Assembly (NCBI GenBank): GCA_963717935.1
Contig: CAVQXP010000002.1
Coordinates: 288,001-352,000, forward strand
Origin: Candidatus Eiseniibacteriota bacterium
GTDB lineage: Bacteria; Eisenbacteria; RBG-16-71-46
DNA: 64,000 bases
Reading direction: 5' to 3'
A program made the position numbers and the translations under genes. This document shows, piece by piece, positions 43,839-54,042 of the stretch (position 1 is its first letter; every line of letters begins with the position of its first letter). The notes under the pieces were generated by a model. It did no database searches and had not been told where the DNA came from. It saw only the letters and a program-made list of their open reading frames with translations.

Positions 43839-43867
43839 TAAGGGAACGCCCGCCGCCGCGCCGATAA
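43839..43867 (+). promoter_or_regulatory. Possible sigma28-type promoter upstream of mglA
   Basis: Perfect -10 GCCGATAA at 43860; TAAG at 43839, but spacer is 17 rather than 15. Confidence 0.4.
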
Positions 43868-44142
43868 GTCCCTCTGACAGGGTGGCGCTCCGCATCGTGA
43901 CGTTCACCTGTCCGGCCGCCTCGAGCGATCAGGACAGGGCTCCGGGCGGGCGATGCAGAGCGCTCCCAACCAGCGTGGCGACCCCATCCGGCGGGTCCGG
44001 CCGTCCCGATCACGGGCCTTCGTGCCCTGCGATCACCAGGACGGATCGTCCGCCCTCAAGGTCCCTGTGGAGAAAGGGCGGCAAGGGGCTCCATGGGATC
44101 CGGCTTTGTGACAGGGTGGGGTCGCACCAGGAGGGACGCGCC

Positions 44143-45191
44143 GTGGTTGTCGTGAGCTACTCGGGCAAGGAGATCAACGCGAAGCTCGTCTACTACGGGG
44201 CGGGCTTGAGCGGCAAGACGACGAACCTCGAGGCCATCTACGAGGCGGTGCCCGATACCAGCCGTGGCAAGATGGTCAGCATGAAGACGCAGTCCGACCG
44301 GACGCTCTTCTTCGATCTGCTGCCGCTCGACCTTGGCGAGATCATGGGGTTCAAGACCCGCTTCCTGCTCTACACGGTGCCGGGCCAGGTGTTCTACAAC
44401 GCCACCCGCAAGCTCGTGCTCAAGGGAGCGGACGCCATCGTCTTCGTCGCCGACAGCGAAGTCGGCAAGATGGAGGAGAACAAGGAGAGTCTCGCCAACC
44501 TGAAGACGAACCTGGCCGAGTACGGCCTGAGCCTCGACGAGATCCCGTGGGTGATCCAGTACAACAAGCGCGACCTGCCCAACGTCTACTCGGTCGAGGA
44601 GCTCGACGCCGAACTGAACGACGGCGGCAAGGTGCCGAGCTTCGAGGCGGTGGCCACGACGGGCAAGGGCGTGTTCGAGACCTTCCGCGGCGTGTCGCAT
44701 CTGCTCATGGAGAAGGTGACGAAGGACCTGCGCCGCACGCCGTTCGCGAGCGCGGCCTCGCGCCCGGTTCCGGGCGGTGTGGAGGCTCAGGCGAAGTCCG
44801 AGCCATCCCGCACTCAGGCTGCGTCGCCCCTGGCGCCGCCAGTGGTCCATCGCGCGCGAGGCCCAGGAGACCGTCGCCCGCGAGATCGGCAGCGCGGCGG
44901 GCGTCGACTACGGGCGCGAGATCGACTCTTCCGGACGAGACCGCGCCGCGGCTGAAGGCCGTGGCCGCCGCCGCCGGTGTCCCCGCCGCTCCCTGTCGTG
45001 CGACGGCCCCGGCACCCGTTGCCGTCGCGCCGGCAACGGCGCCCGCCTCCATCCTTGCGGCTCCGCAGGCCGCGGTCGTCACCGCAGACGCCCGGCAGGC
45101 CGAATCCGACGAGCTCGTCGTGCCGGTCACGGTCACCCGTGGCTCCGCACGGGAGATCGTCCTGCGCATCGTGCTCAAGGTGGAAGGCTGA
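44143..45191 (+). CDS. mglA: MglA/SofG-family small GTPase with long C-terminal extension (frameshifts near 44850 and 44940)
   Basis: KEINAKLVYYGAGLSGKTTN, DRTLFFD, YTVPGQ, YNKRDL, GKGVFET; AGGAGG RBS; tail ends ELVVPVTV...IVLRIVLKVEG. Confidence 0.85.
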
Positions 45192-46069: not shown

Positions 46070-46074
46070 CGCGT

Positions 46075-46101
46075 TAAGTCGTCTGCAGTCCAAGCCGATA
46101 C
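46075..46101 (+). promoter_or_regulatory. sigma28 (FliA)-type promoter upstream of csrA-flgM
   Basis: TAAG-N15-GCCGATAC, near-consensus with canonical spacing. Confidence 0.75.
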
Positions 46102-46156
46102 GCTAGGTGATGAAGGGGTGACGGCTGCCCCGTAGAGGCGCGGAGGTAGCTCCAAG

Positions 46157-46406
46157 ATGCTGGTCCTAACACGGAAGTTAGGCGAGAACATCCGGATCGG
46201 GGACTCGGTCAAGATCACCGTGCTGGAGGTGCGCTCGGGCCAGGTGAAGCTCGGCATCGAGGCGCCGCCCGATGTGAAGGTCCACCGCGAAGAGATCTAT
46301 GCCCGCATCCAGGAAGAGAACCGTCGCGCGCAGCGTGGGAAGCCAGGCGAGCCGGAACCGCCGAAAGCCACGGGACGATCCGGGCGGGGCGAGCGGCTCC
46401 CGCTGA
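46157..46406 (+). CDS. csrA: Carbon storage regulator CsrA (probable true stop at 46406 after a +1 indel; as read the ORF runs to 46627)
   Basis: [25 protein letters not shown]...[28 protein letters not shown]. Confidence 0.93.
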
Positions 46407-46480
46407 TTCGCGCGCCGGCACGGCGGACGCCGGGAAGGCGTCCGGGGCCGGTTCCTGCGGCGGGCGCGGCAGGAGGAGTC

Positions 46481-46679
46481 ATGGACCAGCGGTTCGCAGA
46501 GCCGCGGGCACATCCGGCTGGTGACCGTCACGGACGGGAAGCGCTCCCGTGGCGAGGCGGGTGTGCGCTGGTCACGGGTGAAGGCCGCGCGCGCGCGGAT
46601 CGCCGCCGGCTTCTACGACCGCGCTGACGTGCGCGAGAAACTGCTGGACGCCATCCTGGACGAGTTGACGGACTCCTAG
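46481..46679 (+). CDS. flgM: Short FlgM-like anti-sigma28 factor (about 65 aa; extra base just after ATG, or GTG 46521 start)
   Basis: AGGAGGAG RBS; frame ending at TAG 46679 reads [35 protein letters not shown], matching the FlgM C-terminal pattern; behind a sigma28 promoter; not in the ORF track. Confidence 0.6.
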
Positions 46680-46699
46680 GCGCCTCCTCAGGCGCAGAT

Positions 46700-46729
46700 G
46701 CCCGCCGTGACCCGGCGGGCTTTTCGTTT
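46700..46729 (+). terminator. Rho-independent terminator after csrA-flgM
   Basis: GCCCGCCG-tgacc-CGGCGGGC followed by TTTTCGTTT. Confidence 0.85.
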
Positions 46730-46770
46730 GTGGTCCTCCTCTGCGATACTGCGCGCACGATGGAGCGTCC

Positions 46771-47997
46771 ATGCCGGTGAAGCGCGCGGCCCGCGCACGC
46801 GTCGAGGGAACGGCACCCGTGGAGGCCGCCGGTCGGCTGCTCATGGCCGACGTCGAGCACGGCGTGCTGCTGCTCGACCCGCGGGGCCGCGTGACGGCCG
46901 CGAATCCTGCGGCGCTGCGCCTGCTCGGGCTGCGGGCGGAGCACGGTCCGCGGGCGTGCCGCCTCCGGGCTCGTGCGCAGCGTGGTGCTCGGGGACGATC
47001 CGGTCGCCGAGACCTTCGGGGCCGCCACGACCGAGCGCGAGGTCCTGCTCGCGCCGCGCGGCGGGTGGCGAGGTGCCGGTGCTCCTGCGCGGCTTCCGCT
47101 TCGGGCGCCCGGCGCGCGTCCTGCTCGTGCTGCGCGATCTCACGCAGCCGCGCCGGATGCAGCAGGAACTGCGGCGCAACGAGCGGCTCGCGACCCTGGG
47201 CCAGCTCTCGGCGGGGGTGGCACACGAGATCCGCAACCCTCTGGCCGGCATCGGCGTCAGCGCGCAGGTGCTGCTGGGGCGCTTCGAGCCCCGCGACGCG
47301 CGCGCGCGCTTCGTGAGCGTCATCCTCGAGGAGGTGGCGCGACTCGACCGGCTGGTCACGAACCTGCTCCAGTACGCGCGCCCGCGGAGTCCGGAGCTCA
47401 GCCCCGGTCAGCTCGTGGACTGCGTGCGACGCGTGGTCGAGCTCTCGGCCGACTCGTTCGCCCGGGCCGGCGTGCGCGCGGAGGTCGAGGCGAAGCCGGG
47501 ACTCCGGTCGCTCTGGATCGACACGGACCTGGTGACGCAGGTCGTTGCTCAACGTGACGCTGAACGCGGTGCAGGCCATGCCGCAGGGCGGCACGCTGCG
47601 CTACGAGGTGCGCCTCACGCGCCGCCGCCGCGCGCCGCGCGGGCCGGGCCGGCGGGCCAGCGACGTGCACGAGCGGAGGGCCGCCGTGCCCGCCGCGCGC
47701 GGCGGGAGAGTGGATCGCCATCCAGCAGATTCGCGTGACCGACAGCGGCGTGGGCATCCCGCGCGGCGTGCTCGGTAAGCTCTTCGACCCCTTCTTCTCG
47801 ACCAAGGCCGAGGGGCAGCGGGCTGGGGCTTTCCATCTGCCAGACCATCATGCAGGAGCACGGTGGCTCGATCGAGGTCGCGAGCCGTGAAGGCGAGCGG
47901 CACCACCGTGCTCCTGGATTTCCCCGTGGAGAAGCGACATGGCGAAAGACGAGGCACCGCCGCGGACGCAGGCCCCGCACACGCTGCTCATCGTTGA
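46771..47997 (+). CDS. PAS sensor histidine kinase (NtrB/FleS/FlgS-like), multiple frameshifts
   Basis: GVLLLD..GRV..ANPAA; ERLATLGQLSAGVAHEIRNPL; LNVTLNAVQAM; DSGVGI...LFDPFFSTK; GLGLSICQ.I..EHGG in successive frames. Confidence 0.85.
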
Positions 47998-49369
47998 CGA
48001 CGAGCGCTCGCTGCGCTTCAGCATCGGCGAGTGGGCGCGCGACGCGGGCTACCGTCCGCTCGAGGCCGAGGATGGCGGCGCGGCGCTCGAGCGCGTGCGC
48101 GAGCAGTCGGTGGACGCGGTCCTGCTCGACCTGCGGCTCGGGACCGAGGACGGGCTCGAGGTGCTCCGGCGGCTGCGTGCCGAGGAGCCGTGGCTGCCGG
48201 TCATCATGCTGACCGGGCATGGCTCGATCGAGCACGCGGTACAGGCCACCCGGCTGGGGGCCTTCGATTTCATCCTCAAGCCGCCGGACCTCGACCACCT
48301 GGGCATCGTGCTGGAGCGTGCGCTCGAGCGTGGGCGCCTGCGCCGCGAGGTCGAAGATGCCCGTCGCGAGAAGTTCCCGCCCATCATCGGCGCCAGCCCG
48401 GGGCTGCGCACCGCGCTCCAGCGCCTCGAGAAGGCCGGCAAGAGCGGTACCGCGACCATCATGGTGCGTGGCGAGACCGGCTCGGGCAAGGGGCTGCTGG
48501 CGCGCTACCTGCACGCGCACAGCGCGCGCGCCGACGGACCGTTCGTGGAGCTCAACTGCAGCGCCATCCCCGAGCAGCTGCTCGAGAGCGAGCTCTACGG
48601 GCACGAGAAGGGCGCCTTCACCGACGCCAAGCGCTTCAAGAAGGGGCTCTTCGAGCTGGCCGACGGCGGGGCGCTCTTCCTCGACGAGATCGGCGAGATG
48701 ACGCCGGGCCTGCAGGCCAAGCTGCTCCACGTGCTCGAGACCCGCACCTTCCGCCGCGTGGGCGGCGGGAGCGACATCACGGTGGACGTGCGCGTGATCG
48801 CCGCCACGCACCGCGACCTGCCGAAGGCGGTGGCCGAGGGCCGCTTCCGCGAGGACCTCTACTTCCGCCTCAACGTGGTGCCCATCGTGGTGCCACCGCT
48901 GCGCGAGCGCCGCGAGGACGTGGCGCTCATGGCCGAGCACTTCATCGCCCAGTTCTGCCGCGAGCTGGGCCGGCCGACGGCGCGGTTGCACCCCGACGCC
49001 CTGCGCGTGATGCTCGACTACGCTTGGCCGGGCAACGTGCGCGAGTTGCGGAACCTGATGGAGCGCGTCGTGCTGCTCGAGGCCGAAGACGAGATCCGGG
49101 TCGAGCACCTGCCGCCCGAAGTGACGGGCGCGCGGGGGGACGCACGCGCACCTGCTTCGGCGGCGAGCGTGTTCCCGCCGGGCGTGGTGCGTCCGCTGGT
49201 CGAGGTCGAGAAGCTGGCGATCGAGCACGCGCTGTCGGTGTGCGGAGGCAACAAGACGCTCGCCGCGAAACAGCTGGGCATCTCGCGGCAGACGCTGCGC
49301 ACCAAGCTCAAGGAGTACGCGCTCGGTGACGACTCGGACGAGGCGGCCGAAGGGCCTCTGAGCGACTGA
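47939..49369 (+). CDS. sigma54-dependent NtrC-family response regulator (REC-AAA+-Fis HTH)
   Basis: LIVDDE, LLDLRL, GETGSGKG, ESELYGHEKGAFTDA, LFLDEIGE, FREDLYFRL, WPGNVREL, GNKTLAAKQLGISRQTL. Confidence 0.95.
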   Translation: MAKDEAPPRTQAPHTLLIVDDERSLRFSIGEWARDAGYRPLEAEDGGAALERVREQSVDAVLLDLRLGTEDGLEVLRRLRAEEPWLPVIMLTGHGSIEHAVQATRLGAFDFILKPPDLDHLGIVLERALERGRLRREVEDARREKFPPIIGASPGLRTALQRLEKAGKSGTATIMVRGETGSGKGLLARYLHAHSARADGPFVELNCSAIPEQLLESELYGHEKGAFTDAKRFKKGLFELADGGALFLDEIGEMTPGLQAKLLHVLETRTFRRVGGGSDITVDVRVIAATHRDLPKAVAEGRFREDLYFRLNVVPIVVPPLRERREDVALMAEHFIAQFCRELGRPTARLHPDALRVMLDYAWPGNVRELRNLMERVVLLEAEDEIRVEHLPPEVTGARGDARAPASAASVFPPGVVRPLVEVEKLAIEHALSVCGGNKTLAAKQLGISRQTLRTKLKEYALGDDSDEAAEGPLSD

Positions 49370-49776: not shown

Positions 49777-49794
49777 CTGGCACGCAGGGTGCAA
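49777..49794 (+). promoter_or_regulatory. sigma54 (-24/-12) promoter of the REC...fleN-fliA operon
   Basis: CTGGCACGCAGGGTGCA: GG-N10-GC exact, TGGCACG intact; about 35 nt before ATG 49830. Confidence 0.75.
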
Positions 49795-49829: not shown

Positions 49830-50231
49830 ATGCCCCACATCCTGATCATCGAAGACGAGCCGAGCACCGCCTGGGCGTTGGCCGAGGGGCTCTCGGACGA
49901 CGGCTTCAGCATCGACACCTTCTCGACCGCGGAGGAGGCCTGGGTCTGGCTCCAGCACGGCCAGTGCGATCTCGTGATCTCCGACCTGCGCTTGCCGGGC
50001 ATGAGCGGTCTCGATTTCGCACGCAAGCTGGCACGCAGCCGCCAGACCCTGCCCGTCATCATCCTGACCGCCTACGGAAGTCCCGAGACCCTGCGTGCGC
50101 TCGCCGCCGCCGGTGTCTTCGAGTGCTTCCCCAAGCCCTTTGCCATGGACGCGCTCCGCCACGCGGTGCGCCGCTCCCTCCAGCGCGCGGTCGACCGCCG
50201 CGATGTGCGGCCGCGCCGCAAGGCCGCCTGA
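49830..50231 (+). CDS. Single-domain response regulator
   Basis: ILIIEDE, VISDLRLPGMSG, IILTAY, FPKPF: phosphoacceptor Asp, Thr and Lys intact. Confidence 0.9.
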   Translation: MPHILIIEDEPSTAWALAEGLSDDGFSIDTFSTAEEAWVWLQHGQCDLVISDLRLPGMSGLDFARKLARSRQTLPVIILTAYGSPETLRALAAAGVFECFPKPFAMDALRHAVRRSLQRAVDRRDVRPRRKAA

Positions 50232-50539
50232 TGCGTCCCCGCGTCGTTGCCCTGCCCTCACGCCGCTCCGTCGCGGTGCCCCGGCACGACCGGCGCGAGG
50301 CCGTGGCACGCGCCCTCAGCGGCTGCGCCGCGCGTGAGCGCGTGCTGCTGGCCCTGCTCCTCTTCGAGCGTCTTACACCCGCCGAAGCCGCGAGCGTGCT
50401 CGGCGTCCCGACTGCGCGCATCGAGCGTGCCTACGCCGCGCTGCTCGCCCAGCTGCGCGAGTTGCTCGGCGGCCGCGCCCCGCGGGCGAGCGTGCCGCGC
50501 TTTGCCACTCCGACCGCGCGCCTGAGGCGGGCGTCATGA
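50231..50539 (+). CDS. Stand-alone sigma70 region-4-like protein resembling the FliA C-terminus
   Basis: RERVLLALLLFERLTPAEAASVLGV aligns without gaps to FliA QERLVVALYYYEHLTLKEIGRTLGI; TGATG-coupled to the REC gene. Confidence 0.7.
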   Translation: MRPRVVALPSRRSVAVPRHDRREAVARALSGCAARERVLLALLLFERLTPAEAASVLGVPTARIERAYAALLAQLRELLGGRAPRASVPRFATPTARLRRAS

Positions 50540-50793
50540 ACCGCCACGCCGCCTTCACGTCCAGTTCGGACCTGCGCCGCGCGATGCCGCCCACGACCGG
50601 GCTGCGGCTCGATCAGGCGCACGCCGCGCTGGCCTCGTTGCGCGAGGAGGCGCGGCGCCTGGAGCGGCTGGGTCTCAAGGAGGCGCTCTGCCGCTGCCGT
50701 GAGCAGCTGCGGTACTGGGAGTTCCTCTCGGCGCTCTTCGCGCTGCCGGCCGCGCCTCGGTCCCGCGTTCACCGGACGCACGGGAGCCACTGA
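50536..50793 (+). CDS. Small helical hypothetical protein (85 aa)
   Basis: ATGA and TGATG coupling on both sides; amphipathic helices (LASLREEARRLERLG...LRYWEFLSALF). Confidence 0.65.
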   Translation: MNRHAAFTSSSDLRRAMPPTTGLRLDQAHAALASLREEARRLERLGLKEALCRCREQLRYWEFLSALFALPAAPRSRVHRTHGSH

Positions 50794-51740
50794 TGGCCTC
50801 CGAGCGCTCCTCCGGCAGATCCCGCCGCGGCCCGTCCCCGGCGGTGCCGCTGCGCGTCATGCCCGGCATCGCACCGAGTGGCGAGCTCGCCGACCATCCC
50901 GCGAACTGGGAGCGTCTGCGGACCCGCATGCTGGTGGTCGCGAGCGGCAAGGGCGGCGTGGGCAAGAGCAACCTGTGCGCGAACCTGGCGGTGGCCATGG
51001 GTCAGCGCGGTGCGCGCGTGCTGTTGCTCGACGCCGACTTCTCGCAGGCCAACCTGGACCTGCTGCTGGGGGTGCACCCGCGCTACGACCTGCAACATGT
51101 GCTCGCGGGCGAACGCACGCTCGAGGAGATCCTGGTGGAGGGGCCGGGTGACGTGCGACTCATCCCCGCGGCCTCGGACGTGCCCGAGCTGGCCGAGCTG
51201 GACGACTACCGGCGCGAGTGTCTGCTGCGCGGCATCGGCACGCTCGACAGCAAGGCCGACCTCATCATCACGGACACGGCTTCGGGCGTGACGCGCGACG
51301 CGCTCGCGCTGTGCCTGGCCGCGGATGACGTGATCGTGATGACGACGCCGGAGATGCCGGCCTTCGCCGACGCCTACGGCCTCATCAAGGTCCTGAACGC
51401 CCAGGGCATCCGGCAGGCGCCGTACCTGCTCGTGAGCCAGGCGGCCAGCACCGAGGAAGCCGAGGAGACCGCACACCGGATCCGGCTCGTGGCCCGCCGC
51501 TTCCTGCACCTCGAGATCCAGTCGCTGGGCGCGATCCCCGAGGACCCGGCCATCCCGCGCGCCGTGCGGCGCCAGGAGCCGGTGGTGACCGCCTTCCCGC
51601 AGTCGCCCGCCGCCGTGGCCTACCGCGCCCTGGCTGCGCGGTTGTGGGCGCCTTCACCCCCCGATCCCCCGGCCGAAGAGAGCCACCCCGAGCGCCTGCT
51701 GGCGGGTGCACGTCGCGAACGCCAGCGGCTCGGAGCCTGA
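50793..51740 (+). CDS. fleN: MinD-like ATPase FleN/FlhG
   Basis: VASGKGGVGKSN, LLDAD...NLDLLLG, DTASG, TTPE..AFADAYGLIK, AVRRQEP; directly upstream of fliA. Confidence 0.85.
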   Translation: MASERSSGRSRRGPSPAVPLRVMPGIAPSGELADHPANWERLRTRMLVVASGKGGVGKSNLCANLAVAMGQRGARVLLLDADFSQANLDLLLGVHPRYDLQHVLAGERTLEEILVEGPGDVRLIPAASDVPELAELDDYRRECLLRGIGTLDSKADLIITDTASGVTRDALALCLAADDVIVMTTPEMPAFADAYGLIKVLNAQGIRQAPYLLVSQAASTEEAEETAHRIRLVARRFLHLEIQSLGAIPEDPAIPRAVRRQEPVVTAFPQSPAAVAYRALAARLWAPSPPDPPAEESHPERLLAGARRERQRLGA

Positions 51741-51750
51741 GGAGAACCCC

Positions 51751-52638
51751 ATGGCCCGCCCTACCGCCACCGCCCGCATGCGAGCTCGCCCCGCGAAGCC
51801 CGCTCCATCCGCTCGCACCAGGCGTCCGGTTCCGCGCCAGGCCGTGCCCGCTCCCCGGGCGACCGCCGCGGCGGCCGCCGCCTTGCGCATGGTGCCCGCG
51901 CCCCAGCCCGTGACCTACTCGAAGGAGGATCTGCTGCGCCGCTTCGCGCCGCTGGTGAGGCACGTGGTCGAACGCGTGGCCACCACCCTGCCGCGCAACG
52001 TGGATCACGAGGATCTGTACTCGGCGGGAGTCCTGGGCCTGCTGGACGCGCACGCCAAGTTCGACACGCGCAAGGGAGTGAAGTTCGAGACCTACGCGGT
52101 GTGGCGCATCAAGGGCGCCGTGCTGGACCAGTTGCGCGCGCTCGACTGGGTGTCGCGCTCGATGCGGCGCAAGGCGCGCACTCTGGACGGCGTGACCCGC
52201 GCGCTCGACCAGAAGCTGGGTCGCGCGGCCTCCGAGGATGAATTGGCGCGCGAGCTCAAGATGAATCGCGGCGAGTTCTACCGGTTGCTCGACCACGTCC
52301 GCGGAGCGGTGCTCGTGTCGCTGGACGAGGCCCGCTCGAGCGAGGACCAGGAGTCCACGACGCTGGGCGAGCACCTGTCGGACCCGCACGCCGTGGACCT
52401 GGACGCGCGGCTCGAGGAGGAGCAGACCCGCCTCGTGCTGCTGCGCACTCTCGACCTGCTGCCCGAGCAGGAGCGGCTCGTGGTGGCGCTCTACTACTAC
52501 GAACACCTCACGCTGAAGGAGATCGGTCGCACGCTCGGCATCTCCGAGTCGCGGGTCTCGCAGGTCCACACGCGTGCCATGTCCCGGCTGCGTCTGCGCC
52601 TGCAGAAGGCGCTCGTCGGCGAGGAGCTGGCGGCGTGA
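51751..52638 (+). CDS. fliA: RNA polymerase sigma28 (FliA/WhiG family)
   Basis: DLYSAGVLGL, KFETYAVWRIKGAVLDQLRALDWVSRS, LYYYEHLTLKEIG..LGISESRVSQ. Confidence 0.93.
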   Translation: MARPTATARMRARPAKPAPSARTRRPVPRQAVPAPRATAAAAAALRMVPAPQPVTYSKEDLLRRFAPLVRHVVERVATTLPRNVDHEDLYSAGVLGLLDAHAKFDTRKGVKFETYAVWRIKGAVLDQLRALDWVSRSMRRKARTLDGVTRALDQKLGRAASEDELARELKMNRGEFYRLLDHVRGAVLVSLDEARSSEDQESTTLGEHLSDPHAVDLDARLEEEQTRLVLLRTLDLLPEQERLVVALYYYEHLTLKEIGRTLGISESRVSQVHTRAMSRLRLRLQKALVGEELAA

Positions 52639-53051
52639 TCTCCGCCGCGACGGACGGGAACCTGCCCGGAGCGCCGCACGCGGCGCTGCGCGCGGCCGTG
52701 CTGGACGTGGCCCGGCGGCTGGAGGCCACCGGCCAGGTCGAGGCCTCGAGCAAGCTGTGCGCCGCGCTGGAGAGCTGGTGGCGGGAGCAACTGGACTGGA
52801 CGGGCGAGCTGGCGCAGCAGCTTCGCGTGTACCACGACATCAACAATGCCCTCGTGGGAGTGCGCGGCAATGCGCAGCTCCTGCTCATGGGGCCCGCCGG
52901 CGAGGTCCCGGGGGCCAAGGATCGACTGGAGGTCGTGCTGCGTGAGTCCGACCGGATCCGCGAAGCCGCGCACCGGCTCAACGTTCTCAAGTCCGCCCTC
53001 GCGGCGCTGGCCCGTGAAAGCGAACCGGGTCCCGCGTCCCGTGCGGCCTGA
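52635..53051 (+). CDS. HisKA/DHp-only protein (H-box, no ATPase domain)
   Basis: YHDINNALVGVRGNAQLL...RLEVVLRESDRI; GTGA overlap with fliA. Confidence 0.65.
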   Translation: MISAATDGNLPGAPHAALRAAVLDVARRLEATGQVEASSKLCAALESWWREQLDWTGELAQQLRVYHDINNALVGVRGNAQLLLMGPAGEVPGAKDRLEVVLRESDRIREAAHRLNVLKSALAALARESEPGPASRAA

Positions 53052-54031
53052 GCCGGGCGTGCGTCCCGGCTCCGCCCGCGTGGGCCCGCCCCGCCCGGGC
53101 GCGCCGCCGGCGACGGAGCCGACGGCAGTGCGCGCCTCCGATCCGCGCGGGTCGGGGGGCGAGCGCCGCCGTGCCTCGCGCTCGCTGTGGCAGGCGTGCG
53201 AGGCCCTGCTCTCGGCCGCGGTCGATCGGAAGGCGCTCGAGCGGGCGCTCGCCGACCTGCGCACGGCCTTCGACTGCGACGCCGTGGTCCTGCGGGCCCG
53301 TGGTCCCTCCGGCGCCCTCGAGCCCTGGCAGGCCTGCGGGGACTGGGGGATCCGGCCGGGCGATCTGCGCGACTGCCTCACCGTCCCGCTGCTGCGCGGC
53401 AGCGAGCGCGTGGGGACGCTCGACCTGCTCGCGCGACGTGGCCAGCACTGGCTGCCCGCGCAACTCGGTCTCGTGCGCGCCGCCTCCGGCGCGCTCGGGT
53501 CCGCCCTGGGCGCACGTTTCGAGCTCGAGCAGTTGCGCCGCCAGCCGGGGCGCGATCCCGCGACCGGACTGCCCGACGCGCACGCCTTCCAGGAGCGGCT
53601 TGGCGAGGAGCTGGCGCGCGTGCGCATGCACGGGGCGCCGCTGGCGGTGGCCGTGATCGAGCTGGACCGCTTCCCGGCACTGGCGAAGCGCTACGGTGCC
53701 GGCGTGGCCCGCGCCGTGCTGAGCGAGGCCGCGCTCGTCCTGCGGCTCGCGCTGCGGGAGACGGACGTGCTGGCACGCCTGCCCGGCGCCCGCTTCGCGG
53801 TGCTGCTGCCGGAGACCGAACCGGCCGCCGCGCTGCGCGTTGCCGAGCGTCTGCGCCGCACCGCGGAGGACCACCGCTTCGCGCGCGTCGGACGGCTGGG
53901 CGTGAGCGCCGGCCTGTCGGCGAGCCCGCGCGACGGGGTCGAGAGCGTCGAGATCATGGACCGCGCCGAGCGTGCCCTGACGCTGGCCGTCAAGGCCGGC
54001 CGCCGCCGGGCGGTCGCGACGGAGGCCGCCC

Positions 54032-54042
<11 letters not shown>
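53014..54042 (+). CDS. GAF + degenerate GGDEF-domain protein (start uncertain)
   Basis: VPLLRGSERVGTL (GAF); DPATGLP, ELDRF..L..RYG, RETDVLARLPGARFAVLLPET, VSAG. Confidence 0.8.

Follow-up and report, generated by a model that had tools for sequence, protein, structure and literature searches.

What could a protein do that consists of domain 4 of a sigma factor without the rest of the factor, and that is encoded between a response regulator receiver and the gene of a complete sigma factor? The question is raised by R4, a 102-amino acid (aa) open reading frame (ORF) at positions 50231-50539 of a 64,000-nt stretch of DNA from Candidatus Eiseniibacteriota bacterium (GCA_963717935.1, contig CAVQXP010000002.1, forward strand, 288,001-352,000; the whole stretch is called the window, and positions are window coordinates). 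An earlier note on this DNA had read R4, together with its receiver, as a possible split PhyR-like mimic of sigma-28 that titrates the anti-sigma factor FlgM in a cell without an export apparatus. We find that R4 is a real gene, that it belongs to a so far undescribed family of free-standing sigma-28-like domain-4 proteins, and that its residues equivalent to those reading the -35 element have been replaced. We tentatively propose that R4 and FliA compete for a small anti-sigma-28 protein, which may be the FlgM-like protein of the locus, a second small protein termed X85, or both.

R4 is a free-standing sigma-28-like domain 4

The earlier note had rested the kinship of R4 with the neighboring FliA on 17 identities in 60 ungapped positions. 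We reproduced this count exactly (R4 residues 20-79 against FliA residues 240-299), but taken alone it is weak proof of likeness: R4 is rich in Ala, Arg and Leu, and 13 of 100 shuffled R4 sequences reach the same number. BLASTP aligned the two proteins with 13 identities in 42 positions (E = 3e-6). A profile of 22 R4 homologs, compared with chains of solved structure, placed Streptomyces WhiG at the top (6pfj, E = 3e-9), followed by Aquifex sigma-28 (1rp3, 2.6e-4) and Pseudomonas sigma-28 (9wsf, 8e-4), with PhyR chains among the weaker matches (3n0r, 0.013; 3t0y, 0.017; 2lfw, 0.037). NCBIfam sigma models matched R4 by their last ~64 positions only (sigma70-ECF superfamily, 7e-7; FliA_WhiG, 4e-6). 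As a single sequence, R4 falls below the Pfam gathering scores of PF04545 Sigma70_r4 (17.7 versus 24.1 bits) and PF08281 Sigma70_r4_2 (16.5 versus 25.7 bits), and a precomputed PF08281 match exists for one of 82 R4 homologs.

The AlphaFold model of R4, with a predicted local distance difference test score (pLDDT) of 74.5, contains four helices (residues 18-30, 34-45, 50-57 and 61-80) arranged in the sigma-4 fold with its helix-turn-helix (HTH). It superposes on sigma-4 of WhiG (7lq4) with a root-mean-square deviation (rmsd) of 1.1 Å over 62 columns and on that of sigma-28 (1rp3) with 1.6 Å over 66 columns. Foldseek returned a probability of 1.00 for sigma-4 of WhiG, sigma-28, SigK, SigL, SigF and others (rmsd 1.1-1.8 Å, 57-69 columns); one VraR chain stood at rank 42 of the fold list, as expected of related folds. 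As the earlier note had stated, R4 carries neither region 2 nor region 3 in its 102 residues, and against TIGR02479 (FliA/WhiG) it scores 26.7 bits, far below the cut-off of 189.6, with model positions 160-223 of 224 only. Since it is domain 4 only, without domains 2 and 3, R4 cannot act as a sigma factor or recruit RNA polymerase (RNAP) to a promoter.

The gene has a wide family. In a set of 5.8 billion proteins we found 82 homologs at 56-92% identity, and a profile search of 1.84 billion representatives gave 141 clusters at E<=1e-10, mostly of 80-130 aa. Among the best 150 representatives, 137 were no longer than 161 aa and mostly matched from end to end; a close fused or full-length relative was not found among the longer proteins, which is weak evidence in itself. 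One longer relative of 205 aa lies on a contig of 851 bases and was set aside as a probable mis-call. The reading frame is open in the same place in all 20 related loci, across at least 13 genera, and in this genome its G+C content at third codon positions (GC3) is 0.85, as in a coding frame. Beyond Eisenbacteria, a conserved-stretch locus search with the R4 alignment returned mostly region-4 parts of actinobacterial sigma genes.

As to origin, the best sigma match of R4-like proteins from different genera was FliA in four of five pairwise BLASTP comparisons, and the R4-like protein of a distant flagellated relative keeps the FliA-type stretch LVMALYYYEELT. We accept R4 as a sigma-28-like domain 4 and hold with moderate confidence that it derives from sigma-28.

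Residue conservation in R4 and in FliA

Sequences of R4 and of FliA were taken from one set of 23 genomes and aligned. In the recognition helix, the first 10 positions average a pairwise identity of 0.33 in R4 versus 0.97 in FliA: this helix is the least conserved structured part of R4, whereas domain 4 of FliA is nearly invariant. The best kept segments of R4 are helix 2 (0.55) and helix 3 (0.61), with the pattern ERxxLALxLxERL...E.A..L and invariant L40, E46, R47, L48, E52 and A54. The alignment of the FliA recognition helix SESRVSQ with PTARIER of R4, given in the earlier note, was recovered.

These segments can be related to a structure of Pseudomonas sigma-28 published in 2026. According to that report (PMC12784957), FlgM contacts domain 4 through L187, I191, L200, A203, L204, L210, Y206 and E209; the L204R substitution weakens FlgM binding ~190-fold (dissociation constant from 2.2 to 422 nM); L187 and L204 touch neither DNA nor RNAP; and S224 and Q228 read the -35 element. 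We transferred these positions through the alignment of R4 to chain 9wsf_A, in which a single constant offset put all eight FlgM-contact residues on the letters expected. The hydrophobic contacts L187, I191, L200, A203, L204 and L210 correspond to V25, L29, V38, A41, L42 and L48 of R4, all of them hydrophobic; Leu stands at position 42 in 21 of the 23 genomes and at position 48 in all 23.

In contrast, the two residues assigned there to -35 reading are not preserved. S224 corresponds to A62, in a column that holds R (9), A (6), T (3), G (3) and P (1), and Q228 to R66, while FliA of the same genomes keeps S and Q at these positions in 23 of 23. The recognition helix of R4 is degenerate, and its charge ranges from 0 to +4. 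The overall pattern is as would be expected, without being proof, for a domain that has dropped the reading of sigma-28 promoters and kept a protein-binding groove.

Operon layout and promoters

R4 is the second gene of five on the forward strand. The first encodes the receiver (REC; 49830-50231, 133 aa), which is an intact single domain, as the earlier note had said (Response_reg, 95.1 bits, residues 4-114, the whole domain). The stop codon TGA of REC and the ATG of R4 share an A in the TGATG at 50229-50233, the coupling that had been pointed out before. R4 overlaps in turn, through ATGA, with the start of X85 (50536-50793), a two-helix hairpin protein of 85 aa without a known family, and the stop of X85 overlaps, again through TGATG, with a MinD/FlhG-like P-loop ATPase (50793-51740; ParA, CbiA and AAA_31 matches). 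The minD_arch score of this ATPase, 152 bits, is under the cut-off, and the FlhG label is based on its position 5' of fliA. The FliA/WhiG-family sigma factor follows at 51751-52638 (TIGR02479, 243.6 bits versus a cut-off of 189.6); its ORF is open from GTG 51706, and the start at ATG 51751 agrees with that of a congener. Because REC and R4, R4 and X85, and X85 and the ATPase overlap start on stop, the genes from REC to FliA read as a single operon with coupled translation.

A sigma-54-type promoter, TGGCAC-N5-GTGCA, can be read at 49778-49793, 51 nt 5' of the REC ATG, and GGCAC-N5/6-(C/G)TGCA recurs 48-69 nt 5' of the REC start in all 20 related loci. Upstream lie an NtrB-like histidine kinase (46771-47900, HisKA match), read in several frames, and an NtrC-type sigma-54 activator with REC, AAA+ and Fis-type HTH parts (47939-49369; Sigma54_activat 220.5, Response_reg 95.2, HTH_8 55.2 bits). 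The order activator, REC, R4 is kept in 20 of 20 loci, followed by X85, the ATPase and FliA wherever the contig continues; REC orthologs, 57-91% identical, are immediately 5' of R4 in every one of them.

A second predicted promoter lies at the head of the region. At 46074-46101, a sigma-28-type TTAAGT-N14-GCCGATAC precedes csrA (46157-46366; Pfam CsrA, 89.1 bits, residues 1-53), whose true 3' end is uncertain on account of single-base insertions, and a small FlgM-like protein (46481-46679, with its conserved C-terminal part read from GTG at 46521-46679). In 31 of 32 family loci, the two genes stand behind T(T/C/A)AAGT-N14/15-GCCGATAC, 49-60 nt 5' of the csrA start. The FlgM-like gene occurs in 84 of 89 family genomes, typically 3.5-3.8 kb 5' of R4 on the same contig. 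A predicted sigma-28 promoter ahead of an FlgM-like gene is the usual wiring of FlgM feedback. Together the motifs suggest a cascade from the kinase and its NtrC partner through the sigma-54 promoter to REC, R4, X85, the FlhG-like ATPase and FliA, and from there to sigma-28 promoters including that of csrA and the FlgM-like gene. The coupled X85, the five-gene operon behind a sigma-54 promoter and the sigma-28 promoter ahead of csrA and the FlgM-like gene are features absent from the earlier note.

Metatranscriptome contigs, from two libraries of different studies, run across both junctions of R4, that with REC (49905-50362) and that with X85 (50270-50723), at a likeness of at least 88%. This is a hint that relatives transcribe the operon, as such libraries may contain DNA.

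R4 and REC both end in conserved tails, RLRRAS (50520-50539) and RRKAA (50215-50231), which fall on a purine-rich ribosome-binding stretch and on the following gene's overlapped start. We considered the tails as docking motifs and dropped the idea upon reading the sequence at this coincidence; their conservation may be at the level of RNA rather than of protein. Downstream, a 138-aa ORF (52635-53051) with a weak HisKA (dimerisation/phosphoacceptor) match only overlaps stop to start with fliA at 52635-52638. The same ORF overlaps the ORF of a GGDEF-type protein (52846-54042) by ~200 bases, which points either to a GGDEF start further in or to one more frame problem. Elsewhere in the window, the gene of an MglA-like small GTPase (43860-44955) has CTAAG-N17-GCCGATAA ahead of it, which resembles a sigma-28 motif but departs from the standard spacing.

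A proposed sigma-4 mimic and its candidate partners

The reading that we prefer, and hold tentatively, is that R4 is a sigma-4 mimic that competes with FliA for an anti-sigma-28 protein. The sigma-54-driven, overlap-coupled operon would make REC, R4, X85, the FlhG-like ATPase and FliA together. R4 appears to keep the hydrophobic groove that FlgM helices occupy on sigma-28; it could thus bind a small anti-sigma-28 protein in competition with domain 4 of FliA and so set the amount of free FliA. The candidate anti-sigma factors are the FlgM-like protein encoded after csrA and the co-translated hairpin X85, and the coupled single-domain receiver might turn the competition into a phosphorylation-dependent switch. 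The gene and its fold, the pattern of conservation, the layout of the operon, the two promoter motifs and the loss of DNA-reading residues are shown; binding of R4 to either candidate, the sense of any effect on FliA and the gating by REC are inferred.

The comparison with PhyR made in the earlier note held in part. In the PhyR/NepR/sigma-EcfG system of Alphaproteobacteria, a sigma-like module that is not a sigma factor is linked to a receiver, near a small two-helix protein and a real sigma factor, and the mimic titrates the anti-sigma factor. The linkage of a sigma-like module to a receiver is found at our locus as well. PhyR is one polypeptide, with sigma-2 and a sigma-4-like domain N-terminal to REC, and mimics an ECF sigma factor; R4, in contrast, is domain 4 only, is encoded by a separate gene 3' of REC, resembles group-3 sigma-28 and comes from another phylum. 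Membership in the PhyR family did not stand: NCBIfam PhyR (NF006623) gave 16.3 bits for R4 and 47.1 for REC versus a cut-off of 240, the two are not a single polypeptide, and no sigma-2-like part was found.

A second relative in function would be the HsbA-FlgM switch of Pseudomonas aeruginosa (HptB-HsbR-HsbA). As reported (PMC5085249), HsbA, an anti-anti-sigma factor, sequesters FlgM within the cell and releases sigma-28 under a phosphorelay, independently of export, which sets a precedent for the step proposed here. HsbA is described there as a STAS-domain protein controlled by serine phosphorylation, whereas R4 has the helical sigma-4 fold, with no STAS family among its Pfam and NCBIfam matches, and would mimic sigma itself. 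The nearest sequences and folds to R4 are those of FliA and WhiG domain 4 in structures with FlgM or RsiG (1rp3, 9wsf, 6pfj, 7lq4), and the hydrophobic FlgM-contact positions are kept. However, FliA and WhiG are full-length, with invariant -35-reading residues, while R4 stands alone, evolves much faster than the adjacent FliA and has S224 and Q228 replaced. No GerE/LuxR output of the NarL/FixJ type was found among its Pfam (to E=0.1) and NCBIfam (to E=1) matches. R4 is therefore outside the PhyR, FliA, STAS and NarL-type families.

With regard to partners, the C-terminal helices of the FlgM-like protein and its sigma-28-type promoter are consistent with flgM. In one flagellated relative, an above-cut-off FlgM (27 bits) is encoded 5' of the kinase, NtrC and R4-like genes on the same contig, an observation that is positional and not proof.

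X85 appears at least as good a candidate. We found it in 19 of 20 loci, the other one being cut by a contig end, and it is modeled as a two-helix hairpin (helices 21-45 and 48-69, pLDDT 82.4). Residues P18, R24, D26, C54, R59, Y60, W61 and F63 are invariant, as are the RC and RYW.F motifs across 20 orthologs. It has no Pfam or NCBIfam match, and its profile found nothing below E=1 among solved chains. Foldseek against the PDB returned only generic helical hairpins (ROP, ferritin helices, designed bundles), as did a wide VIA-align search (best Z 8.4), and a protein atlas gave scores up to 0.83, all for unnamed clusters. No relation to the FlgM-like profile was seen (hhalign probability 0.2). 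The c-di-GMP motif of the RsiG type, which we take to be E-x3-S-x2-R-x3-Q-x3-D, was not found when the X85 consensus was inspected by eye. In size, fold and place between a sigma-like module and a sigma gene X85 is like NepR, but no sequence or fold tie between them was found. In a mirror-tree comparison over 15 genomes, exploratory in nature, partial correlations controlling for FlhG were 0.50 for R4 and X85, 0.27 for R4 and the FlgM-like protein and 0.20 for R4 and REC; these figures come from non-independent pairs of fast-evolving proteins and are a lead only. We regard X85 as a candidate new anti-sigma factor or adaptor.

Points against the proposal and competing explanations

Several observations weigh against the proposed competition, and we gather them here. 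The first concern the partners. The earlier note had called the csrA-linked protein FlgM-like, and whereas its promoter is consistent with this, its sequence falls short: no FlgM match was found in this genome at E<=1, and the congener ortholog stays below threshold (PF04316, 14.7 versus 25 bits, E=0.035; TIGR03824, 14.6 versus 40.75 bits, E=0.043). Among 29 members of the FlgM-like family, six give an FlgM match at E<=1 (best 0.0058), and the family profile found no FlgM chain among solved structures. In a mirror-tree comparison over 15 genomes, exploratory in nature, partial correlations controlling for FlhG were 0.50 for R4 and X85, 0.27 for R4 and the FlgM-like protein and 0.20 for R4 and REC; these figures come from non-independent pairs of fast-evolving proteins and are a lead only.

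X85, moreover, is confined to the family of this genome. R4-like genes of three distant genomes follow the kinase and NtrC pair but lack X85, and two of them also lack a stand-alone REC next to them, so neither protein can, as far as these neighborhoods tell, be a universal partner of R4. It follows that the oldest partner of the R4 family is more likely to be something universal: FlgM, FliA, RNAP or the activator. In the distant relatives, chemotaxis-type genes or a long TPR protein flank the R4-like gene in place of REC and X85. CheR-like and CheY-like genes lie upstream of it in G076 (L022:7475-9451), a CheB-like gene downstream in G016 (L025:7837-9214) and the long TPR protein downstream in G001 (L024:8990-12710).

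Other points of the same bearing concern R4 itself. In this genome, the hidden Markov model of the R4 family scores an ECF sigma factor (46.3 bits) about as high as FliA (44.2 bits). Y206 and E209, FlgM contacts in the Pseudomonas study, are not kept in R4 (L44 and R47). The retained hydrophobic positions also belong to the sigma-4 core and to the groove for the RNAP beta-flap, so their conservation is not specific to FlgM. The recognition helix retains a conserved Arg, R66, in 21 of 23 genomes, and the net charge of the domain core, -3 to +9, is mostly positive, which leaves room for R4 to contact DNA with another specificity.

This last possibility leads to the best surviving of the alternatives, which we nevertheless consider unlikely. 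Here R4 would be a small DNA-binding HTH regulator that forms, with its coupled receiver, a split response regulator with a sigma-4/LuxR-like output in trans, acting on sigma-28 promoters or on its own operon. Besides R66 and the positive core, the intact HTH fold of the model and the overlap-coupled REC directly 5' of R4 in all 20 loci speak in its favor. It fits poorly with a recognition helix that is the least conserved part of the protein and varies in charge while that of FliA in the same genomes hardly changes, with the replacement of the residues to which the Pseudomonas study assigns -35 reading, with the lack of LuxR/GerE families among the matches to the thresholds given above, and with the distant R4-like genes, at which the adjacent REC is often missing.

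In sigma factors, helices 2 and 3 of domain 4 form the groove that binds the beta-flap, and this is the best conserved segment of R4. R4 might accordingly occupy the RNAP beta-flap tip as a free domain 4 and compete with resident sigma factors, as a global or sigma-28-specific brake or as a sigma appropriator. We find this improbable. L187 and L204 (V25 and L42 in R4) are reported to lie on the FlgM interface with no RNAP contact (PMC12784957), and the operon encodes FliA too, so that a blanket competitor made together with its target would be less economical.

Slightly less credible still is that R4, with or without X85, modulates the neighboring sigma-54 activator or the FlhG-like ATPase as a feedback adaptor rather than acting on the pair of sigma-28 and anti-sigma factor. 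Feedback adaptors have parallels in FleN, which acts on FleQ, and FliX, which acts on FlbD. The R4-like gene follows a kinase and NtrC-type activator pair in all loci, the distant ones included, and the operon is sigma-54 dependent by its promoter motif; yet no feature of sequence or structure indicates such a contact, and R4 is a copy of sigma-4, whose known partners are anti-sigma factors, the beta-flap, DNA and activators at the -35 region. Finally, the window has 72% G+C with an ORF list crowded by spurious frames and the identity count to FliA is not significant on its own, but that R4 is a chance ORF or, a concern raised in the earlier note itself, a non-conserved decaying duplicate of the fliA 3' end is hardly credible given its 82 close homologs and 141 clusters, a frame open in 20 of 20 loci and at least 13 genera, its GC3, confident sigma-4 model and invariant residues, and, as a hint only, the metatranscriptome contigs (possibly DNA) over both of its junctions in relatives.

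The flagellar island and a candidate sigma-28 regulon

The earlier note had assumed a genome without an export apparatus, and this proved correct: neither FlhA nor flagellin was found in this genome. A stretch of 80.6 kb of a complete congener genome (G139:C1:1660925-1741572), which contains FlhA, two flagellins and a second FlhG-FliA pair, is cleanly absent here between adjacent contig bases (C2:44906/44909). Because the junction lies between adjacent bases inside an assembled contig, the island is truly absent there and not lost in an assembly gap. Two details were recorded in passing: FlhA of the congener G139 is read in three frames, and the junction in this genome adjoins a sigma-28-type promoter and a hybrid kinase.

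The idea that the R4 module makes up for the missing export was not borne out. FlhA coexists with a conserved-position R4 gene in no fewer than 11 family genomes, and flagellated relatives belonging to other families have R4-like genes in flagellar regulatory neighborhoods. In three FlhA-bearing congeners, the locus from REC through R4, X85 and FlhG to FliA is accompanied by a second FliA, above the cut-off and beside FlhA (G135:C76:40148-40819; G139:C1:1687953-1688624; G140:C15:3409-4077). As flagellated congeners keep the module in addition to a second FliA, it is not a substitute that evolved after the loss of the flagellum or of export. The congener FliA beside FlhA is only ~40% identical to FliA of our locus, while the single FliA of G076, a more distant flagellated relative in which it is also beside FlhA, is 57% identical to it; on these identities this genus may have acquired its flagellar island separately.

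The genome without flagella nevertheless carries signs of a sigma-28 regulon. An AAG ends 15 nt 5' of GCCGATA at 16 of 107 sites genome-wide, versus 0-4 at other offsets, and the motif YYAAG-N15-GCCGATAA marks ~20 further candidate promoters (a motif prediction). The first ORFs after these motifs encode hybrid and GAF histidine kinases, a Wza-like exporter, TPR and HEAT proteins, a PilB-like ATPase with MshEN, a glycosyltransferase and Rho (examples in G000: C4:1875714-1877573, C4:1512829-1515192 and C4:62498-64129); no flagellar protein was found among them.

Assembly state of the window

The frames of REC, R4, X85, the FlhG-like ATPase and FliA are intact. Upstream of them, the window has extra single bases, compared with close relatives' contigs from one DNA run and one RNA-library run, at 46132, 46371, 46472, 46490, 46937, 47066, 47544, 47695, 47810, 47898 and 49408. 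The runs contain at most 0.21 of the sampled sequence words, and their contigs are those of relatives. The sites coincide with an over-long csrA frame, a break at the start of the FlgM-like gene and frame changes in the kinase. In csrA, the coding signal leaves the frame near 46370, and the relatives lack one base at 46371. The ATG of the FlgM-like gene at 46481 is one base out of frame with the conserved part, and the relatives lack one base at 46490. In the kinase, frame changes are seen in the GC3 profile, and bases at 46937, 47066, 47544, 47695, 47810 and 47898 are those lacking in relatives; the congener kinase is a single intact ORF of 426 aa. The single bases at 46132-47898 and 49408 are more likely insertions made by the assembly than real frameshifts, and the genes called in this window should be treated with caution.

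Meaning of a free sigma-28 domain 4

In the literature searched, which left most subscription journals outside its coverage, we found no description of a stand-alone sigma-28 domain-4 decoy. To our knowledge, sigma factor mimicry has so far been tied to a single system, PhyR of Alphaproteobacteria, and the only routes of FlgM relief known to us are flagellar export and the STAS protein HsbA. We conjecture, with less confidence than we place in the competition itself, that a three-part switch like that of PhyR and NepR evolved independently for sigma-28. A phosphorylatable receiver would gate a domain-4 mimic that captures X85, FlgM or both, and in lineages without a flagellum the switch would drive a cascade from sigma-54 to sigma-28, co-opted for a regulon unrelated to flagella that comprises signaling kinases, polysaccharide export, a PilB-like ATPase and csrA.

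The proposal lends itself to direct test, as it involves three small soluble proteins and FliA, with the csrA sigma-28 promoter usable as a reporter. If true, a widespread family of free sigma-28 domain-4 proteins within a sigma-54 to sigma-28 cascade would be a second, independent invention of sigma factor mimicry and would give sigma-28 a control point that does not depend on export. That a sigma-28 module with a candidate regulon of ~20 promoters survives in a genome without flagellar genes bears on the role of sigma-28 outside motility.

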